A stretch of 64,000 nucleotides of DNA from an uncultured virus (IMG/VR IMGVR_UViG_3300026095_000001) (IMGVR_UViG_3300026095_000001); one strand, 5' to 3'. Positions 3,591-29,750 are shown, counted from the first letter of the stretch. Notes: a model not told the origin generated them from the letters alone. Numbers and translations are program-made.

Positions 3591-3607
3591 GTTGATTATG
3601 CTTGTAG

Positions 3608-3678
3608 TTGCGGGACCGGGAATCGAACCCGGATGCTGGGCTTATGAGACCCGCGTGTTACCGTTACACTATCCCGCG
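3608..3678 (-). tRNA. tRNA-Met(CAT), initiator-like
   Basis: CGCGGGA acceptor with C1:A72 mismatch, anticodon loop CTCATAA, T-loop TTCGATT; CCA not encoded. Confidence 0.88.
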
Positions 3679-3682
3679 ATGT

Positions 3683-3955
3683 TTAATTTTGCTTACCTCT
3701 TTGTAAAATCTTTTTCTCGATCGTCATCATATACTTCCCTTCCAACAGCAATTCTGTTCCAAATCTAGTTTTCACTTTCATCACCAAATCGTTTCTCTTT
3801 CCCGTCGGTACATGTGGCGCAGCTGTTTCCCCGTTTGAATGACACATCTCCACAAAATCCGTTTCCTCGCCCTCCCACTCGTGACCCGGCAGGACAAGAA
3901 TTTTTCGTCCGCTAAAGAACTTATTGAGGTCTCTTACTGTCTTGAACTTACTCAT
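3683..3955 (-). CDS. Hypothetical protein
   Basis: 90-aa ORF in operon context. Confidence 0.65.
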   Translation of the reverse strand: MSKFKTVRDLNKFFSGRKILVLPGHEWEGEETDFVEMCHSNGETAAPHVPTGKRNDLVMKVKTRFGTELLLEGKYMMTIEKKILQRGKQN

Positions 3956-3958
3956 ATA

Positions 3959-4222
3959 TTATTCCTCCGTGTTTTCCTCTTCTGGTGGAGGGTCTTCGAA
4001 TTTAACTACCGCGACCTTATAACATAAATCGGATTCTGACACCTTTAGAAAATCGGCTATCGCCCTAACATCGGATAGCATTGGCTCCTGTCCCCGCTCC
4101 AATCTGCCGATTTTGGCATGGTCAAACCCTATCGCCATACTCATTTCGGGAGCCGTGAGGTCCAAATACGATCGCCAAAGTGCAAGATTCCGCCTGAAAT
4201 AATTTTCCATGTTGTCGAGCAT
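3959..4222 (-). CDS. XRE-family HTH protein
   Basis: NLALWRSYLDLTAPEMSMAIGFDHAKIGRLERG. Start moved to 4222 because the longer ORF overlaps tRNAs. Confidence 0.8.
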   Translation of the reverse strand: MLDNMENYFRRNLALWRSYLDLTAPEMSMAIGFDHAKIGRLERGQEPMLSDVRAIADFLKVSESDLCYKVAVVKFEDPPPEEENTEE

Positions 4223-4230
4223 TACATTTG

Positions 4231-4323
4231 AGCGGAGGGGTGGATTCGAACCCCCATGGGGGTGCCTAGAATTCCCCCCATTCAGTTTTAATGAATGCCG
4301 TCTACCAACTCCGGCACCTCCGC
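4231..4323 (-). tRNA. Atypical type II tRNA (Leu-like body, apparent anticodon AAA)
   Basis: Acceptor GCGGAGG/CCTCCGC, D-region GGTAGACG, stem ATTCA/TGAAT closing loop TTAAAAC, long variable arm GGGGG/CCCCC, T-loop TTCGAAT, discriminator U. Confidence 0.75.
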
Positions 4324-4326
4324 ATG

Positions 4327-4398
4327 TTGTCCCGTCCGGGTTCGAACCGGAGACCCCTTCCGTATCAGAGAAGTGCTCTACCGCTGAGCTACAGGACA
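4327..4398 (-). tRNA. tRNA-Ile(GAT)
   Basis: Full cloverleaf; anticodon arm CTTCT-CTGATAC-GGAAG. Confidence 0.9.
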
Positions 4399-4400
4399 AT

Positions 4401-4769
4401 AGGGGAGCTGGTCGTATCCTGCCAGCCCCCGATACACTTGTTACGGTTTACGAGACCGCTGCTACTGTGCAGGTAGCTAACCTCCAGGCGTACGGTTTTC
4501 ATGCGGCCTTAAGCTAAGGCTAACATCTGATGATTTGACCACTAATCTACTCCGCCATATAACGGGGGTACCGGGCGACACAAGTGCCATCGGCCCCCGA
4601 GTTGCTGTTTGCCAACACTAACTGAGGCGGAGACAGGATTCGAACCTGCGTTGTCAGAATTGGGACCACATGACCGCACGCGATAATAAACAAAGCTGAA
4701 GCTGTTGACACAATGCTAAAGCTAATCTATCTAGGATCGGCTGAAGCTAAGGCTGAAGCTAAGGCTCTG
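4401..4769 (-). ncRNA. Structured RNA containing a circularly permuted tRNA-like domain and AGC-N3 repeats
   Basis: The 3' tRNA half (4658-4625) precedes the 5' tRNA half (4556-4526) and all four stems pair. About 10 AGC-N3 hexamers; terminal hairpin at 4402-4430. Confidence 0.8.
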
Positions 4770-5564
4770 TCAAATTTTTCCATCGTGGATATATCCAAAG
4801 ATCATTTCTGCTGTCAACTTAGATTCAACCACCGGCGCTTCGTTTGCGACCGCTAGCGCCTCCTGCACCGAAGCTTTCAGATTTGTTATTCGGCGCAACA
4901 TGGTGGCTCTATCAAGGTGCGAAAGCTCCCCGCTGTACTCTTGCAATTCGAAGGTACCTTCCGTAATGGTCGTATTGGTTTGCACAACTTGCGGTACATA
5001 ACTTTTGGTGTCTTTCAGCTGTGCCAGATTGGGATCAGTCAAGATGATCGAAGCCTTCTCCGTTGTTCGTTGCACCTGCGTTTTTACCTCCGTTTCATAA
5101 ATCAGCTTCGCCGACATTTCTGGATCGGCGGATAACTTCCAGTTTTTGGTATCCGATCGTACAGGGAGTGTCTGATACATTTTGGTCAGCTCCGCATTGT
5201 TCAACAAATCACGGAGCCGCATCAACTCCAGTGTCGTGAATTCTCCCCAGGTAACCCCTTCCACAATAAGTGGGGCCTTTTTTCCCGTTGCGTTTGTCGC
5301 CTCAACCGAAAACCGATTGTTGATATATTCTTTCACCGTCGATACGAACCATGCTAAATAATCACGTACGGTAGACTGCACAGCAGTAAAACCTGTGAGG
5401 TGCGGGTGCTCATCGCGCCCCGGCGCCGCAGTATATACCTGTCGTTTGCCCTGGAAAATCCCCTGCTTCTTTGCAAACGTGTCCAGATAGTCTTTTACCA
5501 GCGCGACGTACTGCTTCCCCGTATGCTCTGCTTTTGCCAGCAGCGCGTTTAATTTTTGTCCCAT
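4770..5564 (-). CDS. DUF7873-like protein (family name from memory)
   Basis: KLNALLA N-terminus, F.G....Y, LPVRS...W, YSGE.....RA.ML.R...L...V.EAL..AN. Confidence 0.7.
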   Translation of the reverse strand: MGQKLNALLAKAEHTGKQYVALVKDYLDTFAKKQGIFQGKRQVYTAAPGRDEHPHLTGFTAVQSTVRDYLAWFVSTVKEYINNRFSVEATNATGKKAPLIVEGVTWGEFTTLELMRLRDLLNNAELTKMYQTLPVRSDTKNWKLSADPEMSAKLIYETEVKTQVQRTTEKASIILTDPNLAQLKDTKSYVPQVVQTNTTITEGTFELQEYSGELSHLDRATMLRRITNLKASVQEALAVANEAPVVESKLTAEMIFGYIHDGKI

Positions 5565-5578
5565 ATAGTTGCATTTAT

Positions 5579-5770
5579 TTACTTATCCTCTTTAAAGTAG
5601 GCGGCGATATAGTCTTCCGTTCCAATGGTCAACCCCCGCACTATTTCCCTGCCCTCTTCGATACCAACGTCCCAGCCCAATGCCTTGGTGCACGATATAA
5701 TGATATCGAACACTTCTTCCGGGTGACGCGTCGAACCTTCGATGAAGTCTTTTATATCTTGTATTTCCAT
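5579..5770 (-). CDS. Hypothetical protein
   Basis: MEIQDIKDF...; start placed just downstream of tRNA-Asn. Confidence 0.65.
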   Translation of the reverse strand: MEIQDIKDFIEGSTRHPEEVFDIIISCTKALGWDVGIEEGREIVRGLTIGTEDYIAAYFKEDK

Positions 5771-5771
5771 G

Positions 5772-5844
5772 CGGGGCGGAGCGGACTCGAACCGCCGACC
5801 CAAGGATTAACAATCCTTTGCGCTACCAACTGCGCTACCTCCCC
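5772..5844 (-). tRNA. tRNA-Asn(GTT)
   Basis: Anticodon arm AAGGA-TTGTTAA-TCCTT, T-loop TTCGAGT, G73; one acceptor mismatch. Confidence 0.88.
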
Positions 5845-5847
5845 ATG

Positions 5848-5921
5848 TCCCCCCACCTGGGTTCGAACCAGGGACCCACGAATTAAAAATCCGTTGCTCT
5901 AGCCAGCTGAGCTATGAGGGG
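5848..5921 (-). tRNA. tRNA-Lys(TTT)
   Basis: Anticodon arm ACGGA-TTTTTAA-TTCGT; canonical D and T arms. Confidence 0.9.
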
Positions 5922-6047
5922 GTTAACGGGGGGAAGGCTATTTCACGCATCCGGGCCTTCTGCCGGAAACCATTGATCCGCCGACTGCGCTATTTATCCC
6001 CCGTTGATGCTAATCCTTGCCTTGTACCTAAAAATAAATCAGCGACG

Positions 6048-6368
6048 TCATCCCGCCTTTGGCGTTCTTTTCTTTCTCTTAACGTATTCGATGCACCAGA
6101 TGCCGATACCATTATCTAAGACACGCCACGCATAATCGTGCGGCAATTGGCTGCGCGAACGCAGATGGCCCAGGTAAGAGGAAAGTGATTTTTTTATATC
6201 TTCCGTAACTTCCATTTCCAATACGAGACTCTGGCCGATCGTCATTTTTTTGATATTAAAGGCATCCCATTGTGACTTTATCTCGCGCTGTTTTTTTGTC
6301 GGTATGGGAACACCTTCGCGAAACTCCGGAATTTTGTCTGGGATGGGGATAATCACCTTGGCTTTCAT
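6048..6368 (-). CDS. Hypothetical basic protein, possibly DNA-binding
   Basis: 106-aa ORF with GVPIP and KKMTIGQS pattern. Confidence 0.65.
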   Translation of the reverse strand: MKAKVIIPIPDKIPEFREGVPIPTKKQREIKSQWDAFNIKKMTIGQSLVLEMEVTEDIKKSLSSYLGHLRSRSQLPHDYAWRVLDNGIGIWCIEYVKRKKRTPKAG

Positions 6369-6383
6369 ACCTATAATGATAGT

Positions 6384-6911
6384 TTAAAAATTTTTCAATG
6401 TCTCAATTTTACTCATGGTTAATATTCCAACCTTCATACCGTCCATGATCTCTTTTCCGATGTACTTCAACCATGCTTCCATTTCCGCTTGCGGCGGCAG
6501 GTATCTCCTATGACAATTCGCCACGAGCTTATTGACATAGTTACCTGACTTGGTGGGCCGTTCGAGGTGATGGCCCGTGCGCATATAATAATAAGCCGCC
6601 GCTACTACCCAGCTCCTGTTTCTACCGCTGTGGCAATACAAGTAGACAGATTCATTATTTTGTTCTGCCTCCCATAAAATAACACAGGCAGCAAAGATGT
6701 TGTTGAGCCCCATTTCCATCTTGAACTCTGAAAGCGGAAACCACCAGTACCGTCTCCGTTCATAAATGGGCATCTCGCCGAAATACAACTCATCCGATAC
6801 GTTAATAATCGTCGCGTATTTACCAGGATGCCACTCCTTCAACGCCGGGCTTGGCATGGGACCCACTTCCAGCTTATCCGTGAACCATGATTGAAAATTA
6901 TGGTTGCTCAT
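6384..6911 (-). CDS. Dual-specificity/protein-tyrosine-phosphatase-like protein
   Basis: P-loop VYLYCHSGRNRS (Cx5R), IINVSDE. Confidence 0.85.
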   Translation of the reverse strand: MSNHNFQSWFTDKLEVGPMPSPALKEWHPGKYATIINVSDELYFGEMPIYERRRYWWFPLSEFKMEMGLNNIFAACVILWEAEQNNESVYLYCHSGRNRSWVVAAAYYYMRTGHHLERPTKSGNYVNKLVANCHRRYLPPQAEMEAWLKYIGKEIMDGMKVGILTMSKIETLKNF

Positions 6912-7089
6912 CGACCTCTTTATTTTGTTCCATCTTTGAATGCACCTGCCTCAGTATCTCTTTCCAATATTCCAATACTTCCGGCGTTTCAAACGCATAT
7001 TGCTTCCCATCGTCTAGCGTAATGACGATCTTGTTCATTTTGTTGATGGCTTTTTTCAATTCGCGCTTGTCCATATTGCCTATATCCAT
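6898..7089 (-). CDS. Hypothetical protein
   Basis: Short ORF translationally coupled within the operon. Confidence 0.55.
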   Translation of the reverse strand: MDIGNMDKRELKKAINKMNKIVITLDDGKQYAFETPEVLEYWKEILRQVHSKMEQNKEVDEQP

Positions 7090-7310
7090 TTTTCCACGAT
7101 TAACGGGTCCTCTCCCATAATGCGTTCTTCGCAATAGAGATGCAGTTCGCGCATGTGCTGGCGAATTTGTTTTAGGGATAAATTGGTGATGAAATCCTTC
7201 TGTATTTCTGTGCCGCCATAGGGTCCGATCAGCTGTAGATGTACGACGTATTGATCCTTATCTTTGGCATCGTGACAAACGATGTATATTTTCTTCGCAA
7301 TGAGGAGCAT
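7080..7310 (-). CDS. Hypothetical protein
   Basis: 76-aa ORF. Confidence 0.5.
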   Translation of the reverse strand: MLLIAKKIYIVCHDAKDKDQYVVHLQLIGPYGGTEIQKDFITNLSLKQIRQHMRELHLYCEERIMGEDPLIVEKWI

Positions 7311-7315
7311 AAATA

Positions 7316-7404
7316 GAAGGAGCAGGTGTTACATCTAAATTGCAATCAGAATGAAACGTCGGTTAACGAATTGTGTGCGTTAATCTCACCCCGCTCCTCC
7401 GTAC
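7316..7404 (-). ncRNA. Candidate trans-acting small RNA antisense to early-gene start regions
   Basis: Closing stem GGAGGAGC..GGTG/CACC.GCTCCTTC followed by TATTT; inner hairpin TTAACG/CGTTAA; loop TTTCATTCTGATTGCAATTTAGAT. A TTTG...TAATTTGC promoter-like sequence lies upstream (7406-7438). Confidence 0.55.
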
Positions 7405-7466
7405 AGCAAATTAGGTACATTTTTATTGAATTACCAAATATTCGTTTCACTATTTTTATGAAACAA

Positions 7467-8225
7467 TTATTTTCTTCCTGGCACTTCCGGATATAACTCC
7501 GTCACGACATCACTCTGCCAATACTCTTTTGTATCGAGGTCCATGATCGTCAACTTACCATTCCAACCGCCGCCCGTATCCAGGTTCCAGACACCTCCAG
7601 CGCAGACCGGACGCATCTCATCTATACGCTGACAGGTGGTATGCCCGATGAATATTTCCGTAAAATCATCCGCCGTTTTCAATCTATCCAGCCCTTTACA
7701 GCACAATGCTTTTTCCCACAGGTCGCGGTCCCAGTAGAACATATACTCATGATTGTGTTCATTTTGCTCCATGGTCAGCAGGCGATCAAATCCGCCATGC
7801 ACAAAGCAACGACCATTCTCCACGTAGTACAACTGCATCTGTTCGAAGAAGCGCCGATGGGCGAATGGGATATCCTGCGGCAACAGAAATTCCATGAATC
7901 CCCCAGCGCGATTGAGATGCATATTTTCCTCCGGCACACGCTTGCAATACGACAGCGCGGTCGCTTTACCGCCCTGCCGCCATCCATCTGAATGATAGCC
8001 GCTTAATATCCAGCGCAAGAACCATTCATCGTGATTGCCCAGGATATCGATGCGGTTAGGGATCGTTAGCAGCTCTTCCACGCACTCGTATACGTCCGGC
8101 CATCCGTCGCATATGTCGCCCAAAAAGATGAGGCGGTCTTCCTCTTTATTGATCTTACACCGCTCCAGCACCTGCTTCAAGCCCCGGTAACAGCCGTGCA
8201 GATCGCCTAATACAAATGTTCTCAT
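7467..8225 (-). CDS. Calcineurin-like metallophosphoesterase (Ser/Thr phosphatase, NinI/PphA-like)
   Basis: GDLHG, GDICD, GNHD, FVHGG, IGHT, NLDTGG motifs. Confidence 0.93.
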   Translation of the reverse strand: MRTFVLGDLHGCYRGLKQVLERCKINKEEDRLIFLGDICDGWPDVYECVEELLTIPNRIDILGNHDEWFLRWILSGYHSDGWRQGGKATALSYCKRVPEENMHLNRAGGFMEFLLPQDIPFAHRRFFEQMQLYYVENGRCFVHGGFDRLLTMEQNEHNHEYMFYWDRDLWEKALCCKGLDRLKTADDFTEIFIGHTTCQRIDEMRPVCAGGVWNLDTGGGWNGKLTIMDLDTKEYWQSDVVTELYPEVPGRK

Positions 8226-8908
8226 TTTCCTCTAAAGCTAGTTTTTTTACTAAATCCTTTGTTTTCAAATCTACTCATGTCGGTGGGGTCATCCGGCATC
8301 TTTGGCTCCTGATATGGTATCCAATTGTACAGCGCCATGTACGCCTGCGCGGGCGTCATCACCTGCCCAAACTTCACCTCTTTTAACAACCCATTCTTGA
8401 TGCGTAGGCAGTCAGGGTACTGGCCATCTCTATAGCAGCTGAATAATACCGGCGTGCTATACTTCGTATTCAACTTGACCTTGATCTTCCGAAAGTGCGT
8501 GGAATACCACCAATTTCGATGCTGATCGCGCTTATCCAGTTCGATATCGAAATGCCCTTCCAGACTCATGTGTCGATAATAGGCGCAGGAGAATGCGTCA
8601 GCCTGACGATCGAAAGTACGGCCATAGCGACTCACGATACGCGGGTTGATCGCCTCCTTAACGGCGGGCGGTATTTGGTAATAGTCGTACCAAAATGTAT
8701 CTTCTTTCCAGTCCCTTACATAGGGATACAGCTTATCGCAAAACCAGACCTCTCCCAGAAAGTACCGAGAATGGAGCAGGGCGTAGGAGAGTTCCTTCCC
8801 TACTTCTTTCTCCAGCACCTCCTCTTTTCGCACATACACCTTGCGCGGATCGCTGTCATGGCCGACCACGAAATCGTAGTAGTCTTTTTGTTTGGAAATG
8901 ATCTTCAT
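8222..8908 (-). CDS. Phage hypothetical protein
   Basis: MKIISKQKDYYD...GFSKKTSFR; ATGA overlaps with neighbours. Confidence 0.8.
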   Translation of the reverse strand: MKIISKQKDYYDFVVGHDSDPRKVYVRKEEVLEKEVGKELSYALLHSRYFLGEVWFCDKLYPYVRDWKEDTFWYDYYQIPPAVKEAINPRIVSRYGRTFDRQADAFSCAYYRHMSLEGHFDIELDKRDQHRNWWYSTHFRKIKVKLNTKYSTPVLFSCYRDGQYPDCLRIKNGLLKEVKFGQVMTPAQAYMALYNWIPYQEPKMPDDPTDMSRFENKGFSKKTSFRGK

Positions 8909-9171
8909 TTTCTGTTGTTGTCAGCTGGTCTAATAAAATCGCAAACGGTATATTGGTTTACGAGGGCGTTCCGGTGTGGGTACTCTGGATCAAGGTGAAA
9001 AAGATAATCTGGCGCATCTTCATCCATGTCCAGGTTCTGCCACATAGCCCAGCCCTTTCGATATTGCTCCGTGAGCTGCTTCGTACAGCGCCGGTATACG
9101 CGCGCCGCCACTTTCTTCATGTACCGGTTGCTTGGGTCTTTGATCCAAGGCTGTTTGTAACTTCTTGACAT
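8905..9171 (-). CDS. Small basic protein (MSRSYK...CD type)
   Basis: MSRSYKQPWIKD...KKVAARVYRR...YTVCDF. Confidence 0.7.
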   Translation of the reverse strand: MSRSYKQPWIKDPSNRYMKKVAARVYRRCTKQLTEQYRKGWAMWQNLDMDEDAPDYLFHLDPEYPHRNALVNQYTVCDFIRPADNNRK

Positions 9172-9249
9172 AAAACTTATTTTGGTGATGCATCATTGCA
9201 TTTACCAGAAATAAGCTTGTGGGTTGAGTATATTCATATTCGCTATATT

Positions 9250-9624
9250 TTATTTTGGAATTGTTATCGCCTGAAATGCCTTCGTACTGTCTTCCCAAGT
9301 TACGTATACTTGCCATTGGTTCTTTTGAGGGAGCTTAATCATCGTGGCGGATATAAATTTCGTATCGTTACTGTCAATATTCCGATAACAAAATAACGCC
9401 GTCACCGAATCCATTACATGCTGTTCCCGATAGATTTTATATGTCATCCCATCCAGGATAAAGAGCGTTTTTGTCGTGCTTATACTGCTGTTGCAAGGCG
9501 TATACTTCAAATGAGTCCCATCCCTTAGCCCGGAGCCATAGCTGGAAACTGCGTAAGCCTGCAAACGAGACGGGAGGGGTATTTGTGCTAGGATCAATAG
9601 CGAAATAAAGATTATATTATTCAT
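9250..9624 (-). CDS. Putative exported protein
   Basis: Hydrophobic signal-like N-terminus. Confidence 0.6.
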   Translation of the reverse strand: MNNIIFISLLILAQIPLPSRLQAYAVSSYGSGLRDGTHLKYTPCNSSISTTKTLFILDGMTYKIYREQHVMDSVTALFCYRNIDSNDTKFISATMIKLPQKNQWQVYVTWEDSTKAFQAITIPK

Positions 9625-9630
9625 TATCTT

Positions 9631-11133
9631 TTATTTTGCAATTCTCGGCATGGGTTCATTGGGGTTGATAATTAATTTATCAATGACATCCCCCTTGCGC
9701 CAATGATTCCAAGCCGTTATGATATAACGCACCCGGTTCGCTGAGCCTGGGGCGCCGCTAGGTTGTAACGTAGGGTTCTTGCCCCAATTATCCAATATAT
9801 TATACAAAAGAAATATAGAACTCGTTTCGTCTCCTTTTCCGACTTTTTCCTTCATGGCCAGCCGCGTAAAGAATTCTTCCGCCGCTGCTTTGCTTTTTTG
9901 ATGCATTAGAAAAAACATACCTGCCCACAAGTCCTTTCTTAACAGCTTTTTCCCATGTTTAAAAAATATTCTATTGGTTAGCGATGTAGCTAATCTTAAC
10001 CGATCGGCGTCTTCTTCGCGCGACATGAACTCGACGATGTCCGCATTAGTGGCCACCTTCCCCGTTTTCTTATTCTTGCTTGTCGGGACGCCATGCGTAA
10101 GCATGTTTTTAATGACCATTAGATTCTTCGCAAATTGATTGGGGTCGGGTACATTAAGCAACGACATGGTGTCTCCCGCACTTCTACCGCGTCCCGTATT
10201 CAACACGCCATGGGTATTTTCTTTCAGGCCGCAAAAGATCATCGTTTCCTGGGTGGTTCCGGACTTAATGATAGCTAAAAGACGATGCTGTCCGTCTTTC
10301 AGCAGACCGTTGATATCATACCCCACCGTGCTCTCATTTGTCCACTCCCACGCGCTTTTTTCCATATCGATGGAATAGCCGAAAACAGTTTCTACTTTCA
10401 ATTGACGATTGAGCGTATTACGGATCATCATGTCTTCGGCCATGAGCGGGGTAATGAATTCACGAATCGTGCCTCTTGTCTTCGCTTCCCTGTCAATGCG
10501 TTTGAGAATGTCAGTATCCGGTTTATCTTTTTTCGCCACCACATTGGTCAGAAAATATTTTTCGTGACTTGTCATCTCCACTTCGTCTTCGGAGAGGACT
10601 TTTGGTTTTGTTATGGAGTCAATAGAAACGGCCAAATATTCCCTACCCGGTATCTCCTTGAAGGACATTTTTACGATGATCGAGGATTTCAAGATGCTAG
10701 GTAACTCTATTTTTTTATCGATTTCCTTCGATATCGTTATAATCTCTTCTGTAATCCTTTTTTTGTCTCCACGCGATGCGTTCACTTTAAATTTGTCGCC
10801 TTCTACATTTACAGCCAGTTCGATAGCGTGCGTTTTAATGTGATCTGACTTAGGATCGAAAAACGCCAACATCGAACGTTGTTTTTGTGGAATACCGCTG
10901 GTAATGGCGATACTCTTGATATTTGGGTGCGTCTTGAAATAATTCCCAAAGAAAATGTTTTTAATGAAATGTCCCCTGGCGGCACCTACATTCTGTATGA
11001 CAATTTGCAAATCGTAATCCAGTACTTGGCGCCCCTTCACATTAATCTTCAGAGGAAAGTCGCTCTGTTGAAGGTACTTAATAAACGTGGCATCGTCCAT
11101 AGGCTTACCTGGCCTGATGATTTGTTCTTCCAT
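9631..11133 (-). CDS. DGQHR/ParB-like domain protein with long N-terminal extension
   Basis: NRQL...NG.LKDGQHRLLAIIKSG...TGRGRSAGD. Confidence 0.8.
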   Translation of the reverse strand: MEEQIIRPGKPMDDATFIKYLQQSDFPLKINVKGRQVLDYDLQIVIQNVGAARGHFIKNIFFGNYFKTHPNIKSIAITSGIPQKQRSMLAFFDPKSDHIKTHAIELAVNVEGDKFKVNASRGDKKRITEEIITISKEIDKKIELPSILKSSIIVKMSFKEIPGREYLAVSIDSITKPKVLSEDEVEMTSHEKYFLTNVVAKKDKPDTDILKRIDREAKTRGTIREFITPLMAEDMMIRNTLNRQLKVETVFGYSIDMEKSAWEWTNESTVGYDINGLLKDGQHRLLAIIKSGTTQETMIFCGLKENTHGVLNTGRGRSAGDTMSLLNVPDPNQFAKNLMVIKNMLTHGVPTSKNKKTGKVATNADIVEFMSREEDADRLRLATSLTNRIFFKHGKKLLRKDLWAGMFFLMHQKSKAAAEEFFTRLAMKEKVGKGDETSSIFLLYNILDNWGKNPTLQPSGAPGSANRVRYIITAWNHWRKGDVIDKLIINPNEPMPRIAK

Positions 11134-11180
11134 TTGATTTCGGTTGTTGATTATCGTTAGTGGTTAAAAAAATAAAATGT

Positions 11181-11224
11181 AAAAAGGGATGGAAGTTAAA
11201 GAATTTATCCTTAACTTTCATCCC
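11181..11224 (-). terminator. Intrinsic terminator downstream of the repressor gene
   Basis: GGGATGAAAGTTAA/TTAACTTCCATCCC stem followed by TTTTT on the minus strand. Confidence 0.6.
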
Positions 11225-11278
11225 CTTCAACGAGATCGCTATCCGCTAAAATCCTGGTTATGCGCCGCAGAAAAAAAA

Positions 11279-11725
11279 CTACGAAGAAAAATACCCTGAC
11301 TTTAATACTTCGTCGAGCTGACGTGCTGCGTCCTCTAACATTGCTGCCTGTGCCGCCTCCCACTCCTCAGCCGTCTTTTCCTTCTTCTGTTCATTCAGAA
11401 CATAAGCTACCTCCGGCCGAAGGCGGATAACTTCCTTAACCAGCCAGCTGACGACCTGTTCCAAATCAACCTTTACCGCCTCTTCGTCATCGTTCAGCAG
11501 GTGCTTATACTCGCGCTGGAGCTTCAATATATATGTTGAGGCTTCCGCTGGCAGCGGGGCGCCGTCCCGATCTCGTTTTTTCAAAGAACTCAGCCACTGC
11601 TTTCCCATGCCAAGCACCCTCGCCATGTCTTTTTCCATGACGGGCTTCCCGGCCAGGATCGAGGCCGCCTTGATCTTTTCAATTAGGATATTGAGACGGG
11701 GCGGCGTGGGCTTTTGCTTTGCCAT
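11279..11725 (-). CDS. Putative repressor-like HTH protein
   Basis: EKDMARVLGMGKQWLSSLK; divergent from a Cro-like gene. Confidence 0.65.
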   Translation of the reverse strand: MAKQKPTPPRLNILIEKIKAASILAGKPVMEKDMARVLGMGKQWLSSLKKRDRDGAPLPAEASTYILKLQREYKHLLNDDEEAVKVDLEQVVSWLVKEVIRLRPEVAYVLNEQKKEKTAEEWEAAQAAMLEDAARQLDEVLKSGYFSS

Positions 11726-11743
11726 TTTTAAAATTTTTTTGGA

Positions 11744-11854
11744 TGAAATTTAGAGGTTTTTCAAAATTGTTTCAGTCTTCTGCTGAAACAATTATATTTC
11801 CTCCAGGGTGTTCTAAGTTCGTCTGAGTTCGCTTAACTTCGTCTGAGTTCGCTT
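11744..11854. promoter_or_regulatory. Divergent promoters and operators (lysis/lysogeny switch candidate)
   Basis: Minus-strand TAAATTTC (11744-11751), plus-strand TATATTTC (11793-11800), 11-bp inverted repeat at 11765-11793, 17-bp direct repeats at 11818 and 11838. Confidence 0.6.
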
Positions 11855-11889
11855 TAGTTAAGCTACAGGACGCAATATACAACTGCACA

Positions 11890-12114
11890 ATGAATTCTAC
11901 AACTATTTCTACAAAAAAAGGTATCAGGGAGGCGTACGCCTCGTTGACGGCCGAAGAAATCCAGGCCCTGGAGCAGCGCATAGATGGCTATGGCTGGCTG
12001 GCGGATAGCGCCCGGAGAGCGGGGGTGCACACCAACACCATTCGTAACATTATCCGGCGCGGCTACGGGACTGCGGAAGCCGTGAATAGGATACGCATAA
12101 GACTATTGTCGTGA
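11890..12114 (+). CDS. Cro-like HTH protein
   Basis: LADSARRAGVHTNTIRNII; first gene of the rightward replication operon. Confidence 0.7.
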   Translation: MNSTTISTKKGIREAYASLTAEEIQALEQRIDGYGWLADSARRAGVHTNTIRNIIRRGYGTAEAVNRIRIRLLS

Positions 12115-14265: not shown

Positions 14266-16743
14266 ATGAGCGAATCCCTATCCATCGTATGGGAGCAAGT
14301 TAGTGCGCTCCTGGATATTGGTATCTCTGTGATCCCCGTGCGGGACCAGGAGGTGCAAGGTAAACCGGCGAAGACGCCCTATGGCAACTGGAAACAATAC
14401 CAGCAACGCATCATTACGCCACAAGAGTTGTGGGCGTTGATGGAGCGATACAATACCACGGCCATCGCCATGATCTGCGGACCGATATCGGGCAACCTGG
14501 AGGTAATTGACATCGATGTGAAAAATTGGGCAGGTATTGATGCACGTTATTTTGAAGCCATCCGGGAATTGTACCCGGACCTATGGCAAAACCTCCGTAT
14601 CCACAGCACCCCATCGGGGGGGTATCACATATTGTACCGGATAGATAGGCCCGGTACAGGTAACCAAAAGCTCGCGACTGCGTCCACGTCAACGCAGGCC
14701 GGCATTGAAACAAGGGGTGTGGGGGGCTACATTGTGGCGCCCCCCTCCTTGGGTTACCAAGTTTATCGGGACAACCCGATCCCGCTGGTCACCTGGGAAC
14801 AACGGGAAAGCCTGATCAACCTGGCCAAGAGCTTTGACGAAAAGGTAAAAGTCGTCGCGGCGCCAACACTACCCAAAAACAAATCAGATTACTATGATGA
14901 AAATCCATTCGAACACTTTAATGGTTCAAGTGCCGCTGAATCGATCCTTGTCGATCAGGGATGGACAAGAGAACGATCTGGAAATAGCCATTATCAATAT
15001 TTTACCCGACCGGGTAAATCTACTGGTATCAGTGCCTCTTTCATTCATCGGACCCGACTTTACTATATCTTCACTTCCAGCACCGTACTTGAACCATCAC
15101 GCGCCTATGATCCAGCTGCTATCCTCTGCCGACTACGATTTAATGGAGATGCAAAGGCGACCTACGAATGGCTCGTCGCCAACGGATACGGAAAGATCGC
15201 ACCCCGTCACGAGCAACGACTTATCCGGGCCAGAGTATTAGACGGGGACGCCCTTCCCGGTAACGCCAGTGAGGAAGCCAAAGTCACCTATCAGACCGTA
15301 CGCCTTCAGCTCCAGGAGCGCTACCCGCACGGCACCTACTGGGTGCAGGAGGACGACGAAAATGTCGTCAAGATCAACCGCGAACGGTTGTATCATGTAG
15401 CGAACCGCCTGGGCTTCCGTTATTATCAAACGGGGCTGGTACAGATCGAGGGATACCTTATCCGACATGTCACCGACCGGTATTTCTATGACACGCTCAA
15501 AGCCTATTGCACCGAACCGGAGGCGGACTTCCTGGAGGCTATCCGCAACGCCTTCGAAGCCTTCATCCAACGGGCGGGGACGTTCACCATTACGCGCGTC
15601 CAGCTCCTGGACGAAAACGCGCTATTGAACTCGGATAAACGCACCTGCTATAAATTCTACCGCAACGGATATGTCCGAATCACTGCGACGGAACGATCGT
15701 TTCAGCTATACGCCGATCTACCACCAGGCCGCCTGATCTGGGAAGAGCAACTGATACCGCGTGATCACATTCTGTCCGACGCAAGCGCTACGGCGCATCA
15801 GTCGTTGTATTACCAATTCCTGGAGAAAGCCATCGGCATCACACCATACCTGTGGCAGCTGATCGGCTATCTAGCCCATGACTATAAAGATGAAACCATG
15901 GGGTATTTCGTCGTGCTGGTGGAATCCTGCGCCAACCCCCGCGAAGGCGGCGGGACAGGCAAGAACCTCTTCTGCAACCTGCTGTCCCACATTACGACGG
16001 TCAAGAACCTCAGCGGATCGCAGGTACAACTCAACGAAAAGCTCCTGCAAGCGTGGCAGTACGAGCGGGTGTTGGTGATCTCAGATGTACCGAAACATTT
16101 CAACTTCACCTTTTTCAAAGAGCTGTCAACTGGCAGCGCCACGAAAAAAAATCTTTACCGCGATGAGATCATCCTGGCACCGCACCTGCTGCCTAAGCTT
16201 GTCTTCAGCACCAACTATTCCTTTGAAAATGTGGATGGCGGTATCCTGCGGCGCATTCGTCCACTGGAATTCAGCTCCTTCTTTACTAAAATAGGCGGCG
16301 TCGATCAATACTTCGGCAAACTCTTCCCCCAGGATTGGACCGCAGAAGATTGGCAGGCCTATGACTGGCTCTTGCACCAAGCCATCCAATCGTACCTCGC
16401 CAATCCGAAGATACCAGCCCAGGACCTTTCTACGAGCGGGTGGAACAAGCAATTCGACCAAACGTATCATTTCTCCACGCGCGGGTTCATCCTGGAACAT
16501 TGGGAGCTCTGGCAACGTACGAAATTTGTATCGAACGATGATTTCAAACAGGCGTATGATCTGTATTGCAATGCCAACGGCGTGCAGACGCGCTACCGTC
16601 TCACGGCGTTCCGGCTCAACGAAGCATTGGAAGATTATTGCCGCCGACAGGGGGTCTTTTACGATCGAAACGCTGTGCAGCGCTTCAACAACATAGCGAT
16701 TAGGGGGCGGAGCTTTCAATCACTGGTGCCTGCTCCTTTTTGA
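14266..16743 (+). CDS. Bifunctional primase-polymerase fused to SF3/D5-like helicase
   Basis: VIDIDVK, TPSGGYHILY, IETRGVGGYIVAPPS; Walker A GGTGKN; STN and RR motifs. Confidence 0.92.
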   Translation: MSESLSIVWEQVSALLDIGISVIPVRDQEVQGKPAKTPYGNWKQYQQRIITPQELWALMERYNTTAIAMICGPISGNLEVIDIDVKNWAGIDARYFEAIRELYPDLWQNLRIHSTPSGGYHILYRIDRPGTGNQKLATASTSTQAGIETRGVGGYIVAPPSLGYQVYRDNPIPLVTWEQRESLINLAKSFDEKVKVVAAPTLPKNKSDYYDENPFEHFNGSSAAESILVDQGWTRERSGNSHYQYFTRPGKSTGISASFIHRTRLYYIFTSSTVLEPSRAYDPAAILCRLRFNGDAKATYEWLVANGYGKIAPRHEQRLIRARVLDGDALPGNASEEAKVTYQTVRLQLQERYPHGTYWVQEDDENVVKINRERLYHVANRLGFRYYQTGLVQIEGYLIRHVTDRYFYDTLKAYCTEPEADFLEAIRNAFEAFIQRAGTFTITRVQLLDENALLNSDKRTCYKFYRNGYVRITATERSFQLYADLPPGRLIWEEQLIPRDHILSDASATAHQSLYYQFLEKAIGITPYLWQLIGYLAHDYKDETMGYFVVLVESCANPREGGGTGKNLFCNLLSHITTVKNLSGSQVQLNEKLLQAWQYERVLVISDVPKHFNFTFFKELSTGSATKKNLYRDEIILAPHLLPKLVFSTNYSFENVDGGILRRIRPLEFSSFFTKIGGVDQYFGKLFPQDWTAEDWQAYDWLLHQAIQSYLANPKIPAQDLSTSGWNKQFDQTYHFSTRGFILEHWELWQRTKFVSNDDFKQAYDLYCNANGVQTRYRLTAFRLNEALEDYCRRQGVFYDRNAVQRFNNIAIRGRSFQSLVPAPF

Positions 16744-20965: not shown

Positions 20966-21104
20966 ATAGGAAAAAAGTTGATGTTTCACGAAATTACTGA
21001 AACGAATATTTCCATGTATGGTTCCGTGTAGTTTTTGTTGTACACTTTATAATTTATACTCATGCCAAAGTGGTCGTTTGTAGCATTGGTGGATAAATAA
21101 AGTC

Positions 21105-21585
21105 ATTTTTTGTAACTTTTCGAAATTTTTTGTAACGCGCAAGACCAAGAGAACCAATCGGTTACACGAAATGTTACAGAATTACAAAAAATTTCCCCCT
21201 TTGTTTGCTATGCAATTTTTAAAAATGAAATCTACAAGAGATTTATTTATTCGACCGCATGTGGAATTCCATGTGCTTTTCATTGTAGCGTTTTTGATGA
21301 AGCCCATTGCTCTTCTTTTTTTTCGATAGAACTTTTATAGGAAATTTTTTGTAATTCTGTAACAAACCGGATAAGGCTATGATTCTTACAGCGTTAGGCG
21401 TTACAAAAAATGTTACAAAAAAAATGGGTTTTGTAACGCCTACCGGCTAATGTCTTGGTGCACATTCTTTTAAAAAAATGCTATGTTACAAAAAAGCTTG
21501 TAGATTTGTTACGCAATAAGACAAAGCACTTATACAAGCATCGGGCTAACACTTAGAACAAGCGATGCTACAAGCGATGCTACAT
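21105..21585. repeat. Iteron-like TGTAAC/GTTACA array with 25-bp inverted repeat (putative origin)
   Basis: About 12 TGTAAY/RTTACR units; TGTTACAGAATTACAAAAAATTTCC (21172-21196) is inverted at 21340-21364; tandem ACAAGCGATGCT near 21558-21583; non-coding and AT-rich. Confidence 0.75.
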
Positions 21586-24783: not shown

Positions 24784-24822
24784 GTATACGGGGATAGACC
24801 TTCATCTATCCCCGTATACTTT
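24784..24822 (+). terminator. Perfect 15-bp hairpin (terminator or processing site)
   Basis: GTATACGGGGATAGA-CCTTCA-TCTATCCCCGTATAC-TTT. Confidence 0.5.
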
Positions 24823-24893
24823 ATCCATAACGGGTTAAAAGCCCGCTATTCGGGTGCGAAGCCTGGAATGGAGCTAATCTAAATTGCAACATT

Positions 24894-25211
24894 ATGACAG
24901 CTACAGAGTTTAAAAACCGTATTGCTACTGCCTATAAGCAGAACCAGGACGTTAGCGTCCTATTGTATTGGATCAATAAAGAAGGTGCCTATTAATTGCA
25001 GCGGGACTATGGACCGCGTAAGGTATCCATCCTTCAGACACAACGCTATGCATTTAAGACAGAAAAGTTAGAGAAAGGAGAGTCAACCGGCAAAATGGTT
25101 GATTCTTGGTCTGACTTCCCGAAGGCAAAGGAGCTTAAAGACATTGACGCGAACACCGTGGAAGTGTCTTTCGAGTTTGGTAAGATGATCTATACGTTTC
25201 CTAACAGCTAA
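24894..25211 (+). pseudogene. Early protein with in-frame TAA
   Basis: MTATEFKNR...KEGAY*LQRDYGPRK...; TAA at 24993-24995; the ATG carries the conserved upstream motif. Confidence 0.6.
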
Positions 25212-25221
25212 ATCCAATCAC

Positions 25222-25410
25222 ATGAACACTACCACGATCGATAAGCTAAAGAAGGGGGACTACTTCCGTCTCCCTGGTAAACAGCGAGTATATGTCCGCA
25301 AAGAATACAGCAGGGAAGCGAAGAAGTATGAAGCATCTCGCTTCGACGATGTAAATCACTTCATCTATAAGAAGAAAGGGACCATCGTCGAAATTGATTT
25401 TGATTTTTAA
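25222..25410 (+). CDS. Early hypothetical protein
   Basis: KLKKGDYF...VYVRKEY.R..KKY...FDDVN. Confidence 0.75.
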   Translation: MNTTTIDKLKKGDYFRLPGKQRVYVRKEYSREAKKYEASRFDDVNHFIYKKKGTIVEIDFDF

Positions 25411-25642
25411 CCTATAATAACCACGGCATGCCTATCAATTCCAGTAGTATTAATATGACTTCCCATTTAGAGGACCAACGTACGCAATTGATACTTGCCT
25501 ATGCATGGTTTTCATGTCAGCAAGTGTCTGAAGGAAGGGACGGGGCTATGCAAAGTCTTTCACGTGCTATTACTGCATTAGAAAATGCAATCAAATGTAG
25601 TACTCATGTGGTTTAACATTAGAGTAAACAACACTATAGTAT

Positions 25643-25816
25643 ATGCGACAATTAAAAATCGAAGTAAAAGGCGAAGGGACCAAATCAGAAATTGCCTATG
25701 CCCTTCTCAGTATCGTTAATTCCTTATTGGACCCTACACAAGATATAGACGAACAGGCAGGAGCAGGGATTGAATGGGAAGATAAGACGTTAATGACGAA
25801 TATCAATCCAGCGTAA
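25643..25816 (+). CDS. Early hypothetical protein (57 aa)
   Basis: Manual translation MRQLKIEVKGEGTKSEIAYAL... Confidence 0.65.
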   Translation: MRQLKIEVKGEGTKSEIAYALLSIVNSLLDPTQDIDEQAGAGIEWEDKTLMTNINPA

Positions 25817-25890
25817 ACACCACAGCGGGACAACGGCCCATGGCGTAGGAATTCATCATTCCGACCCGCGCTCATCTAAATTGCAACGTT

Positions 25891-26382
25891 ATGAAAAGAA
25901 GAAAAAAGGAAAAGATTATCCCCTACACGGCGGCAAAGTTACGCTGGCATTTGCAAAATAATGTAATGGGGTTGACAGACTACACTATTGACAACATCAT
26001 TGCTACCTGTCAGAAGGTAAATGATCGTAAGCTAACACTCTCAGATGATCCTAATATAGGCTGTACGGTGGCGGAGATGTTAGACGACCTAAGGATTGAG
26101 TATCGCTTCATTGAAGAGAACGACCTTCAGCGGATGTTAGTGCCCCTCGTTGAACGTACAGACTCATGTATCCTATTGGAGGAGCTGGACAAGATCATTA
26201 ACAGGAATAAGAAGGTAACGGACCTAGATAAGCGCTGGTATGAAGAAAAGCTGATTACGCTAGTAGAGAATATGGGGTACGCGCTTATTAAGCATACAGG
26301 TTCTTTGCCAGAGTTGGAAAAGATAGAAGCATTTCAGCAATCGTTAACACAGAATCCGTATCAGTTACGGCTCATTGCCTAA
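25891..26382 (+). CDS. Early hypothetical protein
   Basis: Motif-preceded ATG. Confidence 0.75.
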   Translation: MKRRKKEKIIPYTAAKLRWHLQNNVMGLTDYTIDNIIATCQKVNDRKLTLSDDPNIGCTVAEMLDDLRIEYRFIEENDLQRMLVPLVERTDSCILLEELDKIINRNKKVTDLDKRWYEEKLITLVENMGYALIKHTGSLPELEKIEAFQQSLTQNPYQLRLIA

Positions 26383-26461
26383 CGGTTCAGCGTACGGGGA
26401 GTCTGGGGGATGACCTACCGTCTCGCAAACGGGGTACGCTACTCATCTAAATTGCAATAAC

Positions 26462-26605
26462 ATGAAAACGATCATTAAGACCATTCTTATCGGGATAGCA
26501 ACGGTTGCTATCCTGCTGGTGACGACCTACAGCGTGTATACGCATTCGCTACGCGGGAAATACACGAACGTAGCAACGATACTACAAGGCAACGCGGATC
26601 AATAG
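26462..26605 (+). CDS. Small membrane protein (47 aa)
   Basis: MKTIIKTILIGIATVAILLVTTYSVY; motif-preceded ATG. Confidence 0.65.
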   Translation: MKTIIKTILIGIATVAILLVTTYSVYTHSLRGKYTNVATILQGNADQ

Positions 26606-26686
26606 CACACACCAGGAACACACGGAAGGATCAACACGGGGCGGGCATGGGGTCCGCCCCATTATTATGTAATTAAATCTAAATAT

Positions 26687-26938
26687 ATGGATGAATTATT
26701 AGACAGCCGCGAAAGTATCTATTTTATCAACACAATCACAAAGGGCAAAGATACGTTGCGGTTCAAGCGAGAAGCAAAAAGCGACAAAGAACTAACCCAA
26801 ATGCTGGTCCACAATGGGACGCACTATACCGGCATCAAAATCAGCCGTACAAAGAATGAGCGGACCTTTAGTCAACATTATGACCTTAGCAAAAATGATA
26901 TTAAGATATTAATAAAGTTTCTGCAAGATCAACTTTAA
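26687..26938 (+). CDS. Early hypothetical protein
   Basis: ORF with A-rich start. Confidence 0.7.
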   Translation: MDELLDSRESIYFINTITKGKDTLRFKREAKSDKELTQMLVHNGTHYTGIKISRTKNERTFSQHYDLSKNDIKILIKFLQDQL

Positions 26939-26978
26939 CTAAAACTGATCCCCACAGTATAACAGGCGGAACCATAAT

Positions 26979-27227
26979 ATGAGGCGATCAATTGCTAAAA
27001 TGCTAGTTGATTTTTATTCTGGCATTATCCCAGCCAAGGACATTATAGAGGATTATGAGCAGCTACAAGAGAATGAACAGGATTTGTATGCACTATGTAA
27101 GGAAATTTATGAGACAGTAAATAAAGAAAAATACAGCTGGCCAATGTTTCAAGAGCTTGTAGGCCATGAATTGGCCGATAAGCTGGAAACTATGGTACAA
27201 GCTGGCGCTGATCCGCGCATATCCTAA
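26979..27227 (+). CDS. Early hypothetical protein
   Basis: ORF in operon. Confidence 0.65.
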   Translation: MRRSIAKMLVDFYSGIIPAKDIIEDYEQLQENEQDLYALCKEIYETVNKEKYSWPMFQELVGHELADKLETMVQAGADPRIS

Positions 27228-27306
27228 CACCCCCACAGGGACCGCTGGCCGCAAGGTCGGGCAGCCGTTCGTCACGGCAACCCTGGCTAATCTAAATTGC
27301 AATCTC

Positions 27307-27744
27307 ATGAACAATTATGTAAGGGAAATTGAGCTGTGTTATGGCTCAAAAAAAATCCCAAACGGTAAGATCAATAATGCCAGTTCAGCCGTAGATTTTT
27401 TTCGATCTATATGGGCGAAAGATATAGAGATACGAGAAAGAGCATACGCTGTATATATCAACAACAAGGGGGAGGTATTAGGCTGGTATGAAATAAGTAG
27501 TGGGGGATTAACTGGAACGGTAATGGACGCGCGTTTGATATACAGCGTAGCGTTAAAATGTCTCGCAGCCAGTGTCGTCGTAGCACACAATCACCCTTCG
27601 GGTGATTTGCAACCGAGCCGGGCAGACAGAGAAATGACGCTGAAGCTAAAAGAGGGGGCAACGGTATTGGACATTAAATTGCTAGATCATGTAATCATTA
27701 ACGCGGATAGCTTTTATAGCTTTCAGGAGAGCGGGTTGATTTAA
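27307..27744 (+). CDS. RadC-like JAB-domain protein
   Basis: ISSGG.TGTVMD...AHNHPSG...S..D...LLDHVII...YSF. Confidence 0.92.
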   Translation: MNNYVREIELCYGSKKIPNGKINNASSAVDFFRSIWAKDIEIRERAYAVYINNKGEVLGWYEISSGGLTGTVMDARLIYSVALKCLAASVVVAHNHPSGDLQPSRADREMTLKLKEGATVLDIKLLDHVIINADSFYSFQESGLI

Positions 27745-27769
27745 TCACAGAAATCTAAATTGCAATCAT

Positions 27770-28111
27770 ATGTTTACATTAACACTGTATGACAGGAAAG
27801 GAAAGCCTTTAAAAGAAGGTGATATTGTACGGGTACACGGCGGCACAAACGTTCAATTCTATGCGGAAGTGAAATATTTGGAAAAGGAGCAGGCCATTGC
27901 TCCGTTTCATACCTTTTCATTCCATTCATTCGAAAAGGTTGATAAACTTCCTGACAATGCAGTTCAAAGCACTGAAGAGCGTTATAAGATTTGGTATACG
28001 CACAATCCTAAGACTAAGCTAAAGGAAAATCCAACCTCCAAATATTTACTTGACTGGCGTCAATGCGAGCATTTATTGAAGGATAAATGTTTTCGCATAA
28101 GCAAAATCTAA
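27770..28111 (+). CDS. Early hypothetical protein
   Basis: DRKGKPLKEGDIV; motif-preceded ATG. Confidence 0.75.
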   Translation: MFTLTLYDRKGKPLKEGDIVRVHGGTNVQFYAEVKYLEKEQAIAPFHTFSFHSFEKVDKLPDNAVQSTEERYKIWYTHNPKTKLKENPTSKYLLDWRQCEHLLKDKCFRISKI

Positions 28112-28182
28112 CCTTATCCCCGCTCAGGCCCATAGGCTGTGCATCGAATGCAGGCGGGGAGCTAATCTAAATTGCAAGAGTT

Positions 28183-28680: not shown

Positions 28681-28724
28681 TCACAGGGAGGGACAGCATG
28701 CTGTCCCTCCGCAATTATTAACAT

Positions 28725-29381: not shown

Positions 29382-29452
29382 CATTTGGTTATACGGTCTC
29401 GCTGTGTAGGCGGGACCGTATAACTTATTCTTTAACGTTTAAAAGAATCAAT

Positions 29453-29671: not shown

Positions 29672-29750
29672 AAGATTCATAACTATGAGCGGAACAGGCC
29701 GCGTGCGAGGGTTCAACTCCCTTGCATAGTGCTCATCTAAATTGCAAATC

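Follow-up and report, generated by a model that had tools for sequence, protein, structure and literature searches.

In the Cluster K mycobacteriophages, the start-associated sequence (SAS) is an asymmetric 13-bp word found upstream of some non-structural genes, 3-7 bp from the start codon and nearly always in one orientation; about half of these SAS/ESAS sites have an upstream inverted-repeat element, and single sites occur on the complementary strand (PMC3203893). As late as 2025, the function of SAS was described as unverified (PMC12699233). The c4 RNA of phage P1 is a structured phage antisense RNA that represses translation in trans, acting on Ant synthesis (PMC8546580). In Bacteroides thetaiotaomicron, the small RNAs (sRNAs) FopS and GibS repress many mRNAs by pairing at a translation initiation region near the start codon that has no Shine-Dalgarno sequence; the FopS sRNAs are host RNAs of ~65-70 nt, present in 14 copies, with a single-stranded 5' seed and a Rho-independent terminator (PMC11697453). 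In this study, we analyzed a 64,000-nt stretch of DNA from an uncultured virus (IMGVR_UViG_3300026095_000001), hereafter the window, in which a 13-nt word, ATCTAAATTGCAA (the tag), recurs just before the start codons of small rightward genes and has one further copy (the orphan) between two leftward genes. An original prediction, made from the sequence alone, held that a trans-acting sRNA from the orphan locus silences the early genes through this shared tag. We put at about even the chances that the orphan locus is an anti-tag RNA module, antisense to the tagged early messages; this is our preferred explanation for an observation that was strengthened by our finding that a second phage has a syntenic, co-varying and strand-specific counterpart of it.

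The start tag of the early genes

Nine exact copies of ATCTAAATTGCAA were found in the window, every one on the plus strand. When up to two mismatches were allowed there were 14 matches, again all on the plus strand (14/14), compared with a mean of 2.96 and a maximum of 7 in 100 shuffles, none of which (0/100) reached 14. Eight of the exact copies and one two-mismatch variant lie 3-5 nt upstream of the ATG of open reading frames (ORFs) of 33-165 amino acids (aa) between 24.9 and 36.1 kb, genes that we call early from the gene layout alone:

24877-24889, plus strand: tag, 4 nt 5' of the ATG of a 33-aa ORF
25874-25886, plus strand: tag, 4 nt 5' of the ATG of a 163-aa ORF
26445-26457, plus strand: tag, 4 nt 5' of the ATG of a 47-aa ORF
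27290-27302, plus strand: tag, 4 nt 5' of the ATG of a RadC-like gene (145 aa)
27753-27765, plus strand: tag, 4 nt 5' of the ATG of a 113-aa ORF
28165-28177, plus strand: tag, 5 nt 5' of the ATG of a J-domain gene (165 aa)
29735-29747, plus strand: tag, 3 nt 5' of the ATG of a 37-aa ORF
30298-30310, plus strand: variant tag, beginning TACT, 5 nt 5' of the ATG of an 85-aa ORF
36046-36058, plus strand: tag, 4 nt 5' of the ATG of a 73-aa ORF

As RNA, the tag takes the form GCUM-AUCUAAAUUGCAA-N3-5-AUG, and the two bases before AAATTGCAA are CT in 10/10 copies of the window, the orphan counted. The genes at 25891, 26462, 28183, 29751 and 30316 all open with ATGAAA, as had been noted earlier.

A GC-rich structured element of ~65 nt lies 5' of every early tag (24812-36045 in the window; also L149:9596-13417). 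Each begins a few to a few tens of nt past the previous stop codon (~8 nt at 27290), and the predicted fold consists of a closing stem, usually enclosing two inner hairpins, that ends 3-5 nt before the tag and is joined to it by a linker of consensus GCTM. The 12 elements tested, nine from the window and three from the related phage G001 described below, all had negative z-scores against shuffles (-0.17 to -4.14), and 9/12 were more stable as plus-strand than as minus-strand RNA, the mean difference being 2.3 kcal/mol. Their shape recurs though their sequences are not conserved. T-arm-like inner hairpins were recognized by eye in 3/12 elements; ARAGORN and the Rfam tRNA model gave no support for tRNA-likeness of the elements, the only match being a fragment of a tmRNA 3' end (E 0.82) before 29735. 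Possibly, these branched elements are sites of RNA processing or punctuation. The tags themselves are predicted to be mostly single-stranded, with a mean unpaired probability of 0.33-0.88 that exceeds the mean of the flanks in 11/12 units.

The tag probably belongs to the mRNA. This is because it adjoins plus-strand structures at a fixed spacing, has no -33/-7 match, and no phage RNA polymerase was found. We compared it with TAnnTTTG preceded by TTTG ~19-21 nt upstream, which we take to be the Bacteroidota -7 and -33 consensus for the housekeeping sigma factor: the tag has the sequence TAAATTGC, the 46 exact -7 boxes of the window include none of its copies, and the -33 position upstream of the tags holds no -33 element and is occupied instead by the GC-rich structure. 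The search for a phage RNA polymerase gave neither a Pfam hit nor a D.D[GA]D motif in the large proteins of the window; the G001 ORFs at 25-47 kb likewise gave no Pfam polymerase hit, and one ORF of 667 aa among them has a lone DQDGD. Exact -7 boxes are present on the plus strand at 21501, 21581 and 23660, just 5' of the early region, and could drive one long transcript that is then processed.

The orphan copy and its predicted minus-strand RNA

The orphan and the RNA predicted from the opposite strand have the following parts:

7333-7345, plus strand: orphan tag copy, an exact match, whose complement is the anti-tag of the minus RNA
7316-7400, minus strand: structured RNA module, in which a closing stem (7400-7387 with 7328-7316) encloses a small hairpin and the anti-tag hairpin
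7339-7345, minus strand: apical loop UUGCAAU (7 nt) of the anti-tag hairpin, unpaired probability 0.95-0.98
7363-7383, minus strand: small hairpin UUAACG/CGUUAA (arms 7363-7368 and 7378-7383), present in the window and absent from G001

The orphan sits in a 156-nt spacer (7311-7466) between two minus-strand genes and thus, as the original prediction stated, in an oppositely transcribed region. The claim that it is the sole copy of the 13-mer outside the early region holds if the copy at 36046 is counted as early, which was implied by placing the targets 17-29 kb away. The orphan is followed, again as described earlier, by N5-ATGAAA, with the ATG at 7351, and by a plus-strand ORF of 10 codons (7351-7383, plus strand) that is probably not a gene.

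The minus-strand RNA of 7312-7402 has a minimum free energy of -27.7 kcal/mol (z -3.60), with 0/200 shuffles as stable, versus -18.7 kcal/mol (z -0.73; 39/200 shuffles as stable) for the plus strand. The corresponding values in G001 were -27.5 kcal/mol (z -2.73; 3/200) for the minus strand and -14.0 (z +0.32) for the plus strand. This strand asymmetry arises because each G.U pair in the minus fold, of which there are 3/30 in the window and 4/21 in G001, is an A.C mismatch on the other strand. In a genome-wide scan of G001, 1.7% of windows fold as well as the module, and a strand difference of this size occurs in 0.4%. The closing stem and the small hairpin had been described correctly in the earlier note, which took the anti-tag stretch to be unpaired; in our predictions that stretch forms a second hairpin that exposes its 7-nt loop alone. 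The UUGCAAU loop is likely to be the seed for pairing.

Co-variation in a related phage

G001 is an IMG/VR contig of 76,638 bp whose primase-polymerase (PrimPol) is 67% identical to that of the window. It is collinear with the window across the leftward, replication and structural modules, and its small rightward genes are mostly different. The 13-mer of the window is absent from G001, which has a sister tag, C-AAATTGCAAT-NAT-ATG, in four copies: three before rightward genes at 69.7-73.4 kb, each preceded by a structured element, and one orphan. The G001 orphan lies at L130:4379 in the spacer directly 5' of a 77-aa minus-strand ORF, and this ORF is a homolog of orf76, the gene that follows the orphan spacer in the window (BLASTP E 2e-5 over the C-terminus). 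The G001 orphan is followed by a 12-codon ORF (by reading of the sequence) with no similarity by eye to the 10-codon ORF of the window.

In an alignment of the two spacers, the anti-tag TGATTGCAATTT is the sole conserved block and the rest is unalignable. The G001 tags have a C beside the core in 4/4 copies and an AC pair in 3/4, the orphan counted, and the G001 orphan obeys the TNAT-ATG spacer rule of that phage. Therefore, in the relative that could be compared, the orphan follows the tag version of its own phage at two flank positions and in the spacer rule, which is the co-variation expected from the original prediction, albeit weak evidence from one relative. The anti-tag hairpin of G001 has the identical 7-nt loop UUGCAAU (unpaired probability 0.95-0.99), and manual comparison of the two stems revealed two identical pairs, one one-sided change that keeps a wobble, and one pair changed on both sides in a compensatory manner (C-G to A-U). 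The 5' half of this stem seems to be selected to pair, since the complementary orphan spacer has no fixed sequence in the early copies.

Message leader or free sRNA

The surroundings of the module on the minus strand include the following features:

7406-7438, minus strand: promoter-like sequence TTTG-N21-TAATTTGC, ending 5 nt before the 5' arm of the closing stem
7080-7310, minus strand: orf76, a small conserved protein, start codon 5 nt past the module
7467-8225, minus strand: upstream gene, a NinI-like/calcineurin-like phosphatase (phrog_246, E 7.7e-45; PF00149, E 6e-12)
7436-7472, no strand assigned: AT-rich inverted repeat with a GTTTCA-N9-TGAAAC core and 14-nt arms (86% complementary), just past the phosphatase stop

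The promoter-like sequence noted earlier is indeed present at 7438-7406 (minus strand), one base off what we take to be the Bacteroidota -7 consensus. The inverted repeat that precedes it (TGTTTCA-N9-TGAAACGAATATTT) has a near-identical twin at ~20982-21011 (plus strand), and each of the two heads a spacer with a promoter-like sequence. The 7436-7472 repeat is operator- or terminator-like and could be an operator shared with its twin, and the position of the promoter-like sequence behind a twinned inverted repeat is a hint of a regulated promoter.

At its other end the module is not terminated in any recognizable way. A terminator scan of 6800-7800 identified three terminator-like sites, all on the plus strand and all outside the 7311-7466 spacer; the minus strand had none. 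The stem is followed by UAUUU in the window and by AUUUAAC in G001, and the AUG of orf76 lies 5 nt (window) or 16 nt (G001) downstream. The TATTT that the earlier note placed after the stem is thus unconvincing as a terminator, and a stand-alone sRNA of ~90 nt is unlikely. The lack of a terminator together with the adjoining start of orf76 leads us to regard the module as forming the 5' end of the orf76 message. Most likely, it is a 5' leader, possibly released by processing, as P1 c4 presumably is, rather than a separately terminated sRNA.

The orf76 family had eight library hits at E <=0.001, whose alignment has a conserved C-terminal motif, and the protein is on record from four contigs, of which the longest has 77,276 bp. 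Searches of orf76 against Pfam and PHROG gave no hit, and its predicted model (pLDDT 86.7) had no match in the PDB at E <=0.001 (best 0.37). A cis switch acting on orf76 was considered and rejected: when the anti-tag was blocked in silico, the closing stem persisted and the accessibility of the orf76 start region stayed as it was (0.39 to 0.42 in the window, 0.64 to 0.64 in G001). The 5' arm of the closing stem (7393-7399) can also pair perfectly, over 7 bp, with codons 1-3 of orf76 (7302-7308) in the window, and this is not seen in G001.

Predicted pairing and proposed mechanism

The 7-nt loop lies inside 13 nt that are complementary to the eight exact targets and have two mismatches to the 30298 variant. 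Co-folding of the module with 125 gene starts placed tagged starts in eight of the top nine ranks, with an untagged start, 35219 (minus strand), in seventh place; this ranking is partly true by construction. Since the starts at 29751 and 29761 represent one site, the eight places correspond to seven distinct tagged genes. The other two tagged genes ranked 12th and 15th, with net gains of -2.2 and -1.1 kcal/mol. The net gains in G001 ranged from -4.3 to -15.2, and a continuous duplex through the start codon was formed in 2/3 co-folds; in the co-fold at 73418 the hairpin stays closed and pairing occurs elsewhere. By manual reading, complementarity in G001 extends through the start codon over 19-21 bp with one G.U.

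Computation supplies the syntenic tag copy that varies in step with the tag, a fold specific to one strand, and the accessibility of the loop and of the tags; transcription of the module, its pairing in the cell, repression as the outcome and the timing of that repression are what we infer. A leftward transcript starting near 7400 would open with the 85-nt folded module, whose inner hairpin would display the complement of the tag with the loop UUGCAAU exposed. The tag would form a short, mostly unpaired leader on the nine small rightward genes. Pairing of the loop with this leader may then seed a duplex over the tag, and in G001 over the start codon too, which would keep ribosomes from loading or target the RNA for cleavage, in all tagged messages together. 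What stands of the original proposal of trans-acting silencing via a shared tag is a mirror copy that is not due to chance, its synteny, a minus-specific fold, an exposed loop and mostly unpaired targets; the free sRNA is unlikely. To our knowledge, gene timing in Bacteroidota phages is almost unknown.

A more far-reaching version of this mechanism is speculative, and we would sooner doubt it than accept it. Bacteroidota start translation without Shine-Dalgarno pairing, and the tagged genes may have a private translation code in which the branched, partly T-arm-like structures leave a fixed leader of 17-20 nt (the tag) as the site of ribosome entry. In such a host, the anti-tag hairpin heading the leftward (regulatory or lysogeny-side) transcript would be a master switch for this entire class of genes that acts by kissing-loop pairing.

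Alternative explanations

Several of our results weigh against the antisense reading. The core TTGCAA is its own reverse complement, so that part of the mirror is trivially also a copy, and, apart from the exposed UUGCAAU, the anti-tag is sequestered in the 3' half of the predicted hairpin stem. In the genome-wide scan of the window phage the module was not exceptional, as 15% of strand-windows fold as well and 10.6% show as large a strand difference. Once unfolding costs are deducted, the net gains for the top tagged starts are modest (-3.2 to -8.3 kcal/mol). The promoter-like sequence is an imperfect one for which no clear canonical counterpart is seen in G001, and the free sRNA is doubtful because no terminator follows the module in the window or in G001. 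As there is one informative relative, the co-variation rests on two positions and one stem pair. In addition, terminator-like hairpins occur inside the early region at ~24787-24816 and 30244-30265, the latter with an 11-bp GC-rich stem and a T-rich tail (z -4.14 for the element before 30298). These suggest several transcription units and so favor the tag as a promoter, in which case it would not be in the mRNAs.

That explanation, which we consider unlikely though deserving of serious weight, is that the tag is a DNA promoter (-10/-7-like TAAATT/TAAATTG) giving nearly leaderless mRNAs and that the orphan is a convergent promoter. The orphan would fire rightward into the leftward promoter ~60-100 bp away, producing a short plus RNA with a throw-away ORF of 10-12 codons, and transcriptional interference or antisense pairing in cis would regulate the leftward operon; coliphage 186, with its face-to-face promoters, offers a parallel. 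Consistent with this, tags head each small gene cassette while untagged genes are packed tightly behind a tagged one, the sole two exact host-type -7 boxes on the plus strand in 24-38 kb (28310 and 32515) fall inside ORFs by our own mapping, and the two terminator-like hairpins within the early region imply re-initiation. The G of the tag lies, by our own count, 5-9 nt before the ATG, which suits a start site at or just before the ATG, and AT-rich hairpins with T-rich tails occur on the plus strand 80-125 nt downstream of both orphans. A promoter would, however, have to function off the Bacteroidota -7 consensus given above, with a GC-rich branched structure where the -33 element should be, and with no phage RNA polymerase found in the large proteins of the window or, bar the lone DQDGD of the 667-aa ORF, in the G001 ORFs at 25-47 kb. 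It also leaves unexplained the minus-specific fold of the orphan, its G.U pairs and its compensatory change in both phages. In the phage fragment G002, tag-like words are separated by 1-2 nt from the ATGs that follow them; one such word, 1 nt from its ATG, is just 13 nt past the previous stop, which is a context of translational coupling. In the distant phages G003 and G005, a leader word for which we claim no homology to the tag lies ~20 nt downstream of canonical -7 boxes and so within the 5' untranslated region (UTR).

It is improbable, in our estimation, that the tag is instead a protein binding site, either for a translational regulator on RNA (of phage or host) or for a DNA-binding regulator, with the orphan tying in the leftward operon or orf76 or titrating the factor. 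The 13 nt are invariant in nine copies, beyond the general needs of translation, and the degenerate G002 tags show what relaxed selection looks like; the palindromic core TTGCAA lies in a hairpin loop, the leftward operon encodes several helix-turn-helix (HTH) proteins, and the partner of SAS was left open as protein or RNA in the available text of Pope et al. (PMC3203893). The orphan region as DNA is an imperfect palindrome, and yet an irregular one (71% complementary, with a bulge) when set against the regular RNA hairpin with its G.U pairs. The non-palindromic flank ATCT is kept as its reverse complement in the minus RNA, as expected for base pairing or for a function on the same strand and not for one protein reading both RNAs, and no RNA-binding fold or family was found for orf76. 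We assign the smallest probability, a very low one, to the minus-strand structure being an ordinary 5'-UTR or spacer stem-loop that stabilizes or tunes orf76, with the tag copy as a recombination relic of an early-gene start that has no role in trans. The module does abut the start codon of orf76, its closing stem persists with the anti-tag blocked and no cis switch is apparent, and repeated tags could promote illegitimate recombination, which occurs at repeats in the PeSL cassettes of T4-type phages. A neutral relic is not expected, however, to be the sole conserved block of the spacer, to track the tag version of each phage and to sit at the apex of a hairpin in both.

Genome context and searches for relatives

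The window is most of the genome of a phage that lacks a close relative in culture, and a megablast search of 5000-12000 against GenBank phages gave no match. Its genes are arranged in the following modules:

~11.7 kb down to 1.6 kb, minus strand: leftward operon with a ParB-like 500-aa protein, the NinI-like phosphatase, orf76, a dual-specificity phosphatase, five tRNAs and three HTH proteins
14266-16743, plus strand: PrimPol, among the rightward replication genes
21.7-38.9 kb, plus strand: ~60 small rightward ORFs
Beyond the small-ORF region: a leftward glycosyltransferase block, then structural genes

The five tRNA genes of the leftward operon (Met, Phe, Ile, Asn and Lys) lie within 3607-5921 (minus strand), and that for tRNA-Phe is 94 nt long with anticodon AAA and a low score (38.9 bits). 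Origin-like iterons are present at 21106-21495 as five copies of TTTTTTGTAAC over both strands, with more GTAAC words around them. A virion protein of 1097 aa (50094-53387, plus strand) has matches of just 24-29% identity, in Flavobacterium, Cellulophaga and Maribacter phages, and a weak match, under the Pfam threshold, to the C-terminal domain of the crAss-like muzzle protein. A histidine-phosphatase domain (PF00300, E 2.8e-20) lies midway along a protein of 1850 aa (56130-61682, plus strand). Shine-Dalgarno sequences are absent from the window genes as judged by eye, so a Bacteroidota host fits.

Our searches for relatives yielded one that was usable for the orphan locus, G001. A PrimPol search identified 16 loci, of which L130/G001 alone is close (67%); a group at 42-46% has only origin iterons near the gene, and GTAACA-type iterons similar to those of the window sit just 3' of PrimPol in PrimPol relatives. 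The phosphatase was found at one locus in viral contigs (40%) and at 11 loci in metagenomes (best 47%, with short pieces at 64% and 73%), none of them syntenic, and L129 diverges right past the gene. The J-domain protein gave one locus (43%) with no tags. A structural-protein profile matched 14 viral loci and none in genome_contigs. The 18.6-kb fragment G002 (74%) is without the orphan region, and G003-G005 share just structural and glycosyltransferase modules with the window. The tag + ATG pattern occurred in at least 117 stretches of viral contigs, with one match in each of the 80 listed, the anti-tag hairpin word occurred at 51 loci of which G001 alone is related by tblastn, and a 17-mer searched in genome_contigs gave 41 single hits over unrelated phyla, which we took as chance.

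Small genes in G003 (51.4-59.0 kb) and G005 (52.9-59.0 kb; L172 and L175) are marked by (C)ACTAAAAA(C), located 2-12 nt (mostly 6-9) before the ATG and ~20 nt past canonical-looking -7 boxes, and represent a second case of a common leader word. In an unrelated AT-rich phage contig (L118:2740-3030), three repeats of a ~28-nt unit ending in ...TACTTCATG each lie before a small ORF. G001 has a CRISPR-like array at 43.4-45.7 kb (L148:3400-5700) of ~25-30 repeats of 36 nt with a 66-bp period, adjoined by a tyrosine-integrase gene at 41996-43363 (PF00589, E 8e-10). Therefore, its lineage may be temperate and carry its own array.

Comparison with known systems

The tag resembles SAS in position, with 9/9 early copies of the tag lying 3-5 nt before an ATG and all on the plus strand. 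The SAS word GGGATAGGAGCCC, however, holds the Shine-Dalgarno core AGGAG and belongs to phages of Actinobacteria, whereas the tag ATCTAAATTGCAA is AU-rich, has no AGGAG and belongs to a Bacteroidota-type phage. ESAS is a pair of conserved 17-bp imperfect inverted repeats, whereas the elements upstream of the tag are variable branched structures, and no folded mirror RNA is proposed for SAS in the available portion of its description (PMC3203893). The tag functions like SAS and is not a member of it.

The module resembles P1 c4 in being, as we propose, a phage-encoded structured antisense RNA that represses phage genes in trans; c4 has one target operon and a role in immunity, whereas the module would have nine dispersed targets with a common tag. 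At the gathering threshold Rfam gave five tRNA hits alone in the window, and at E <=10 the region 7200-7500 gave three unrelated weak hits and no phage or sRNA family; Rfam presumably holds a C4 family. The module differs from FopS in having one copy, on a phage, a seed in an internal hairpin loop, no terminator, and a probable fusion to an mRNA. The analogy to FopS that had been drawn is therefore one of function only, the architecture being different and an Rfam hit lacking, and the module is not a member of the c4 (P1/P7 c4, P4 CI) or FopS/GibS families. The RegA protein of T4 is a repressor with a loose sequence preference that acts at the initiation regions of many early messages. It shares with our candidate the lowering of translation of many early messages by one phage product, which here would be an RNA with exact complementarity.

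If the antisense reading is true, the tag and the module together would make a compact switch, programmable by sequence, that controls a whole regulon, an RNA counterpart of T4 RegA. The private translation code, if true, might account for the orphan SAS sites seen on the complementary strand in Cluster K mycobacteriophages. Such a system would also offer a testable answer to a question open since 2011, namely what reads the start-associated sequences of mycobacteriophages.

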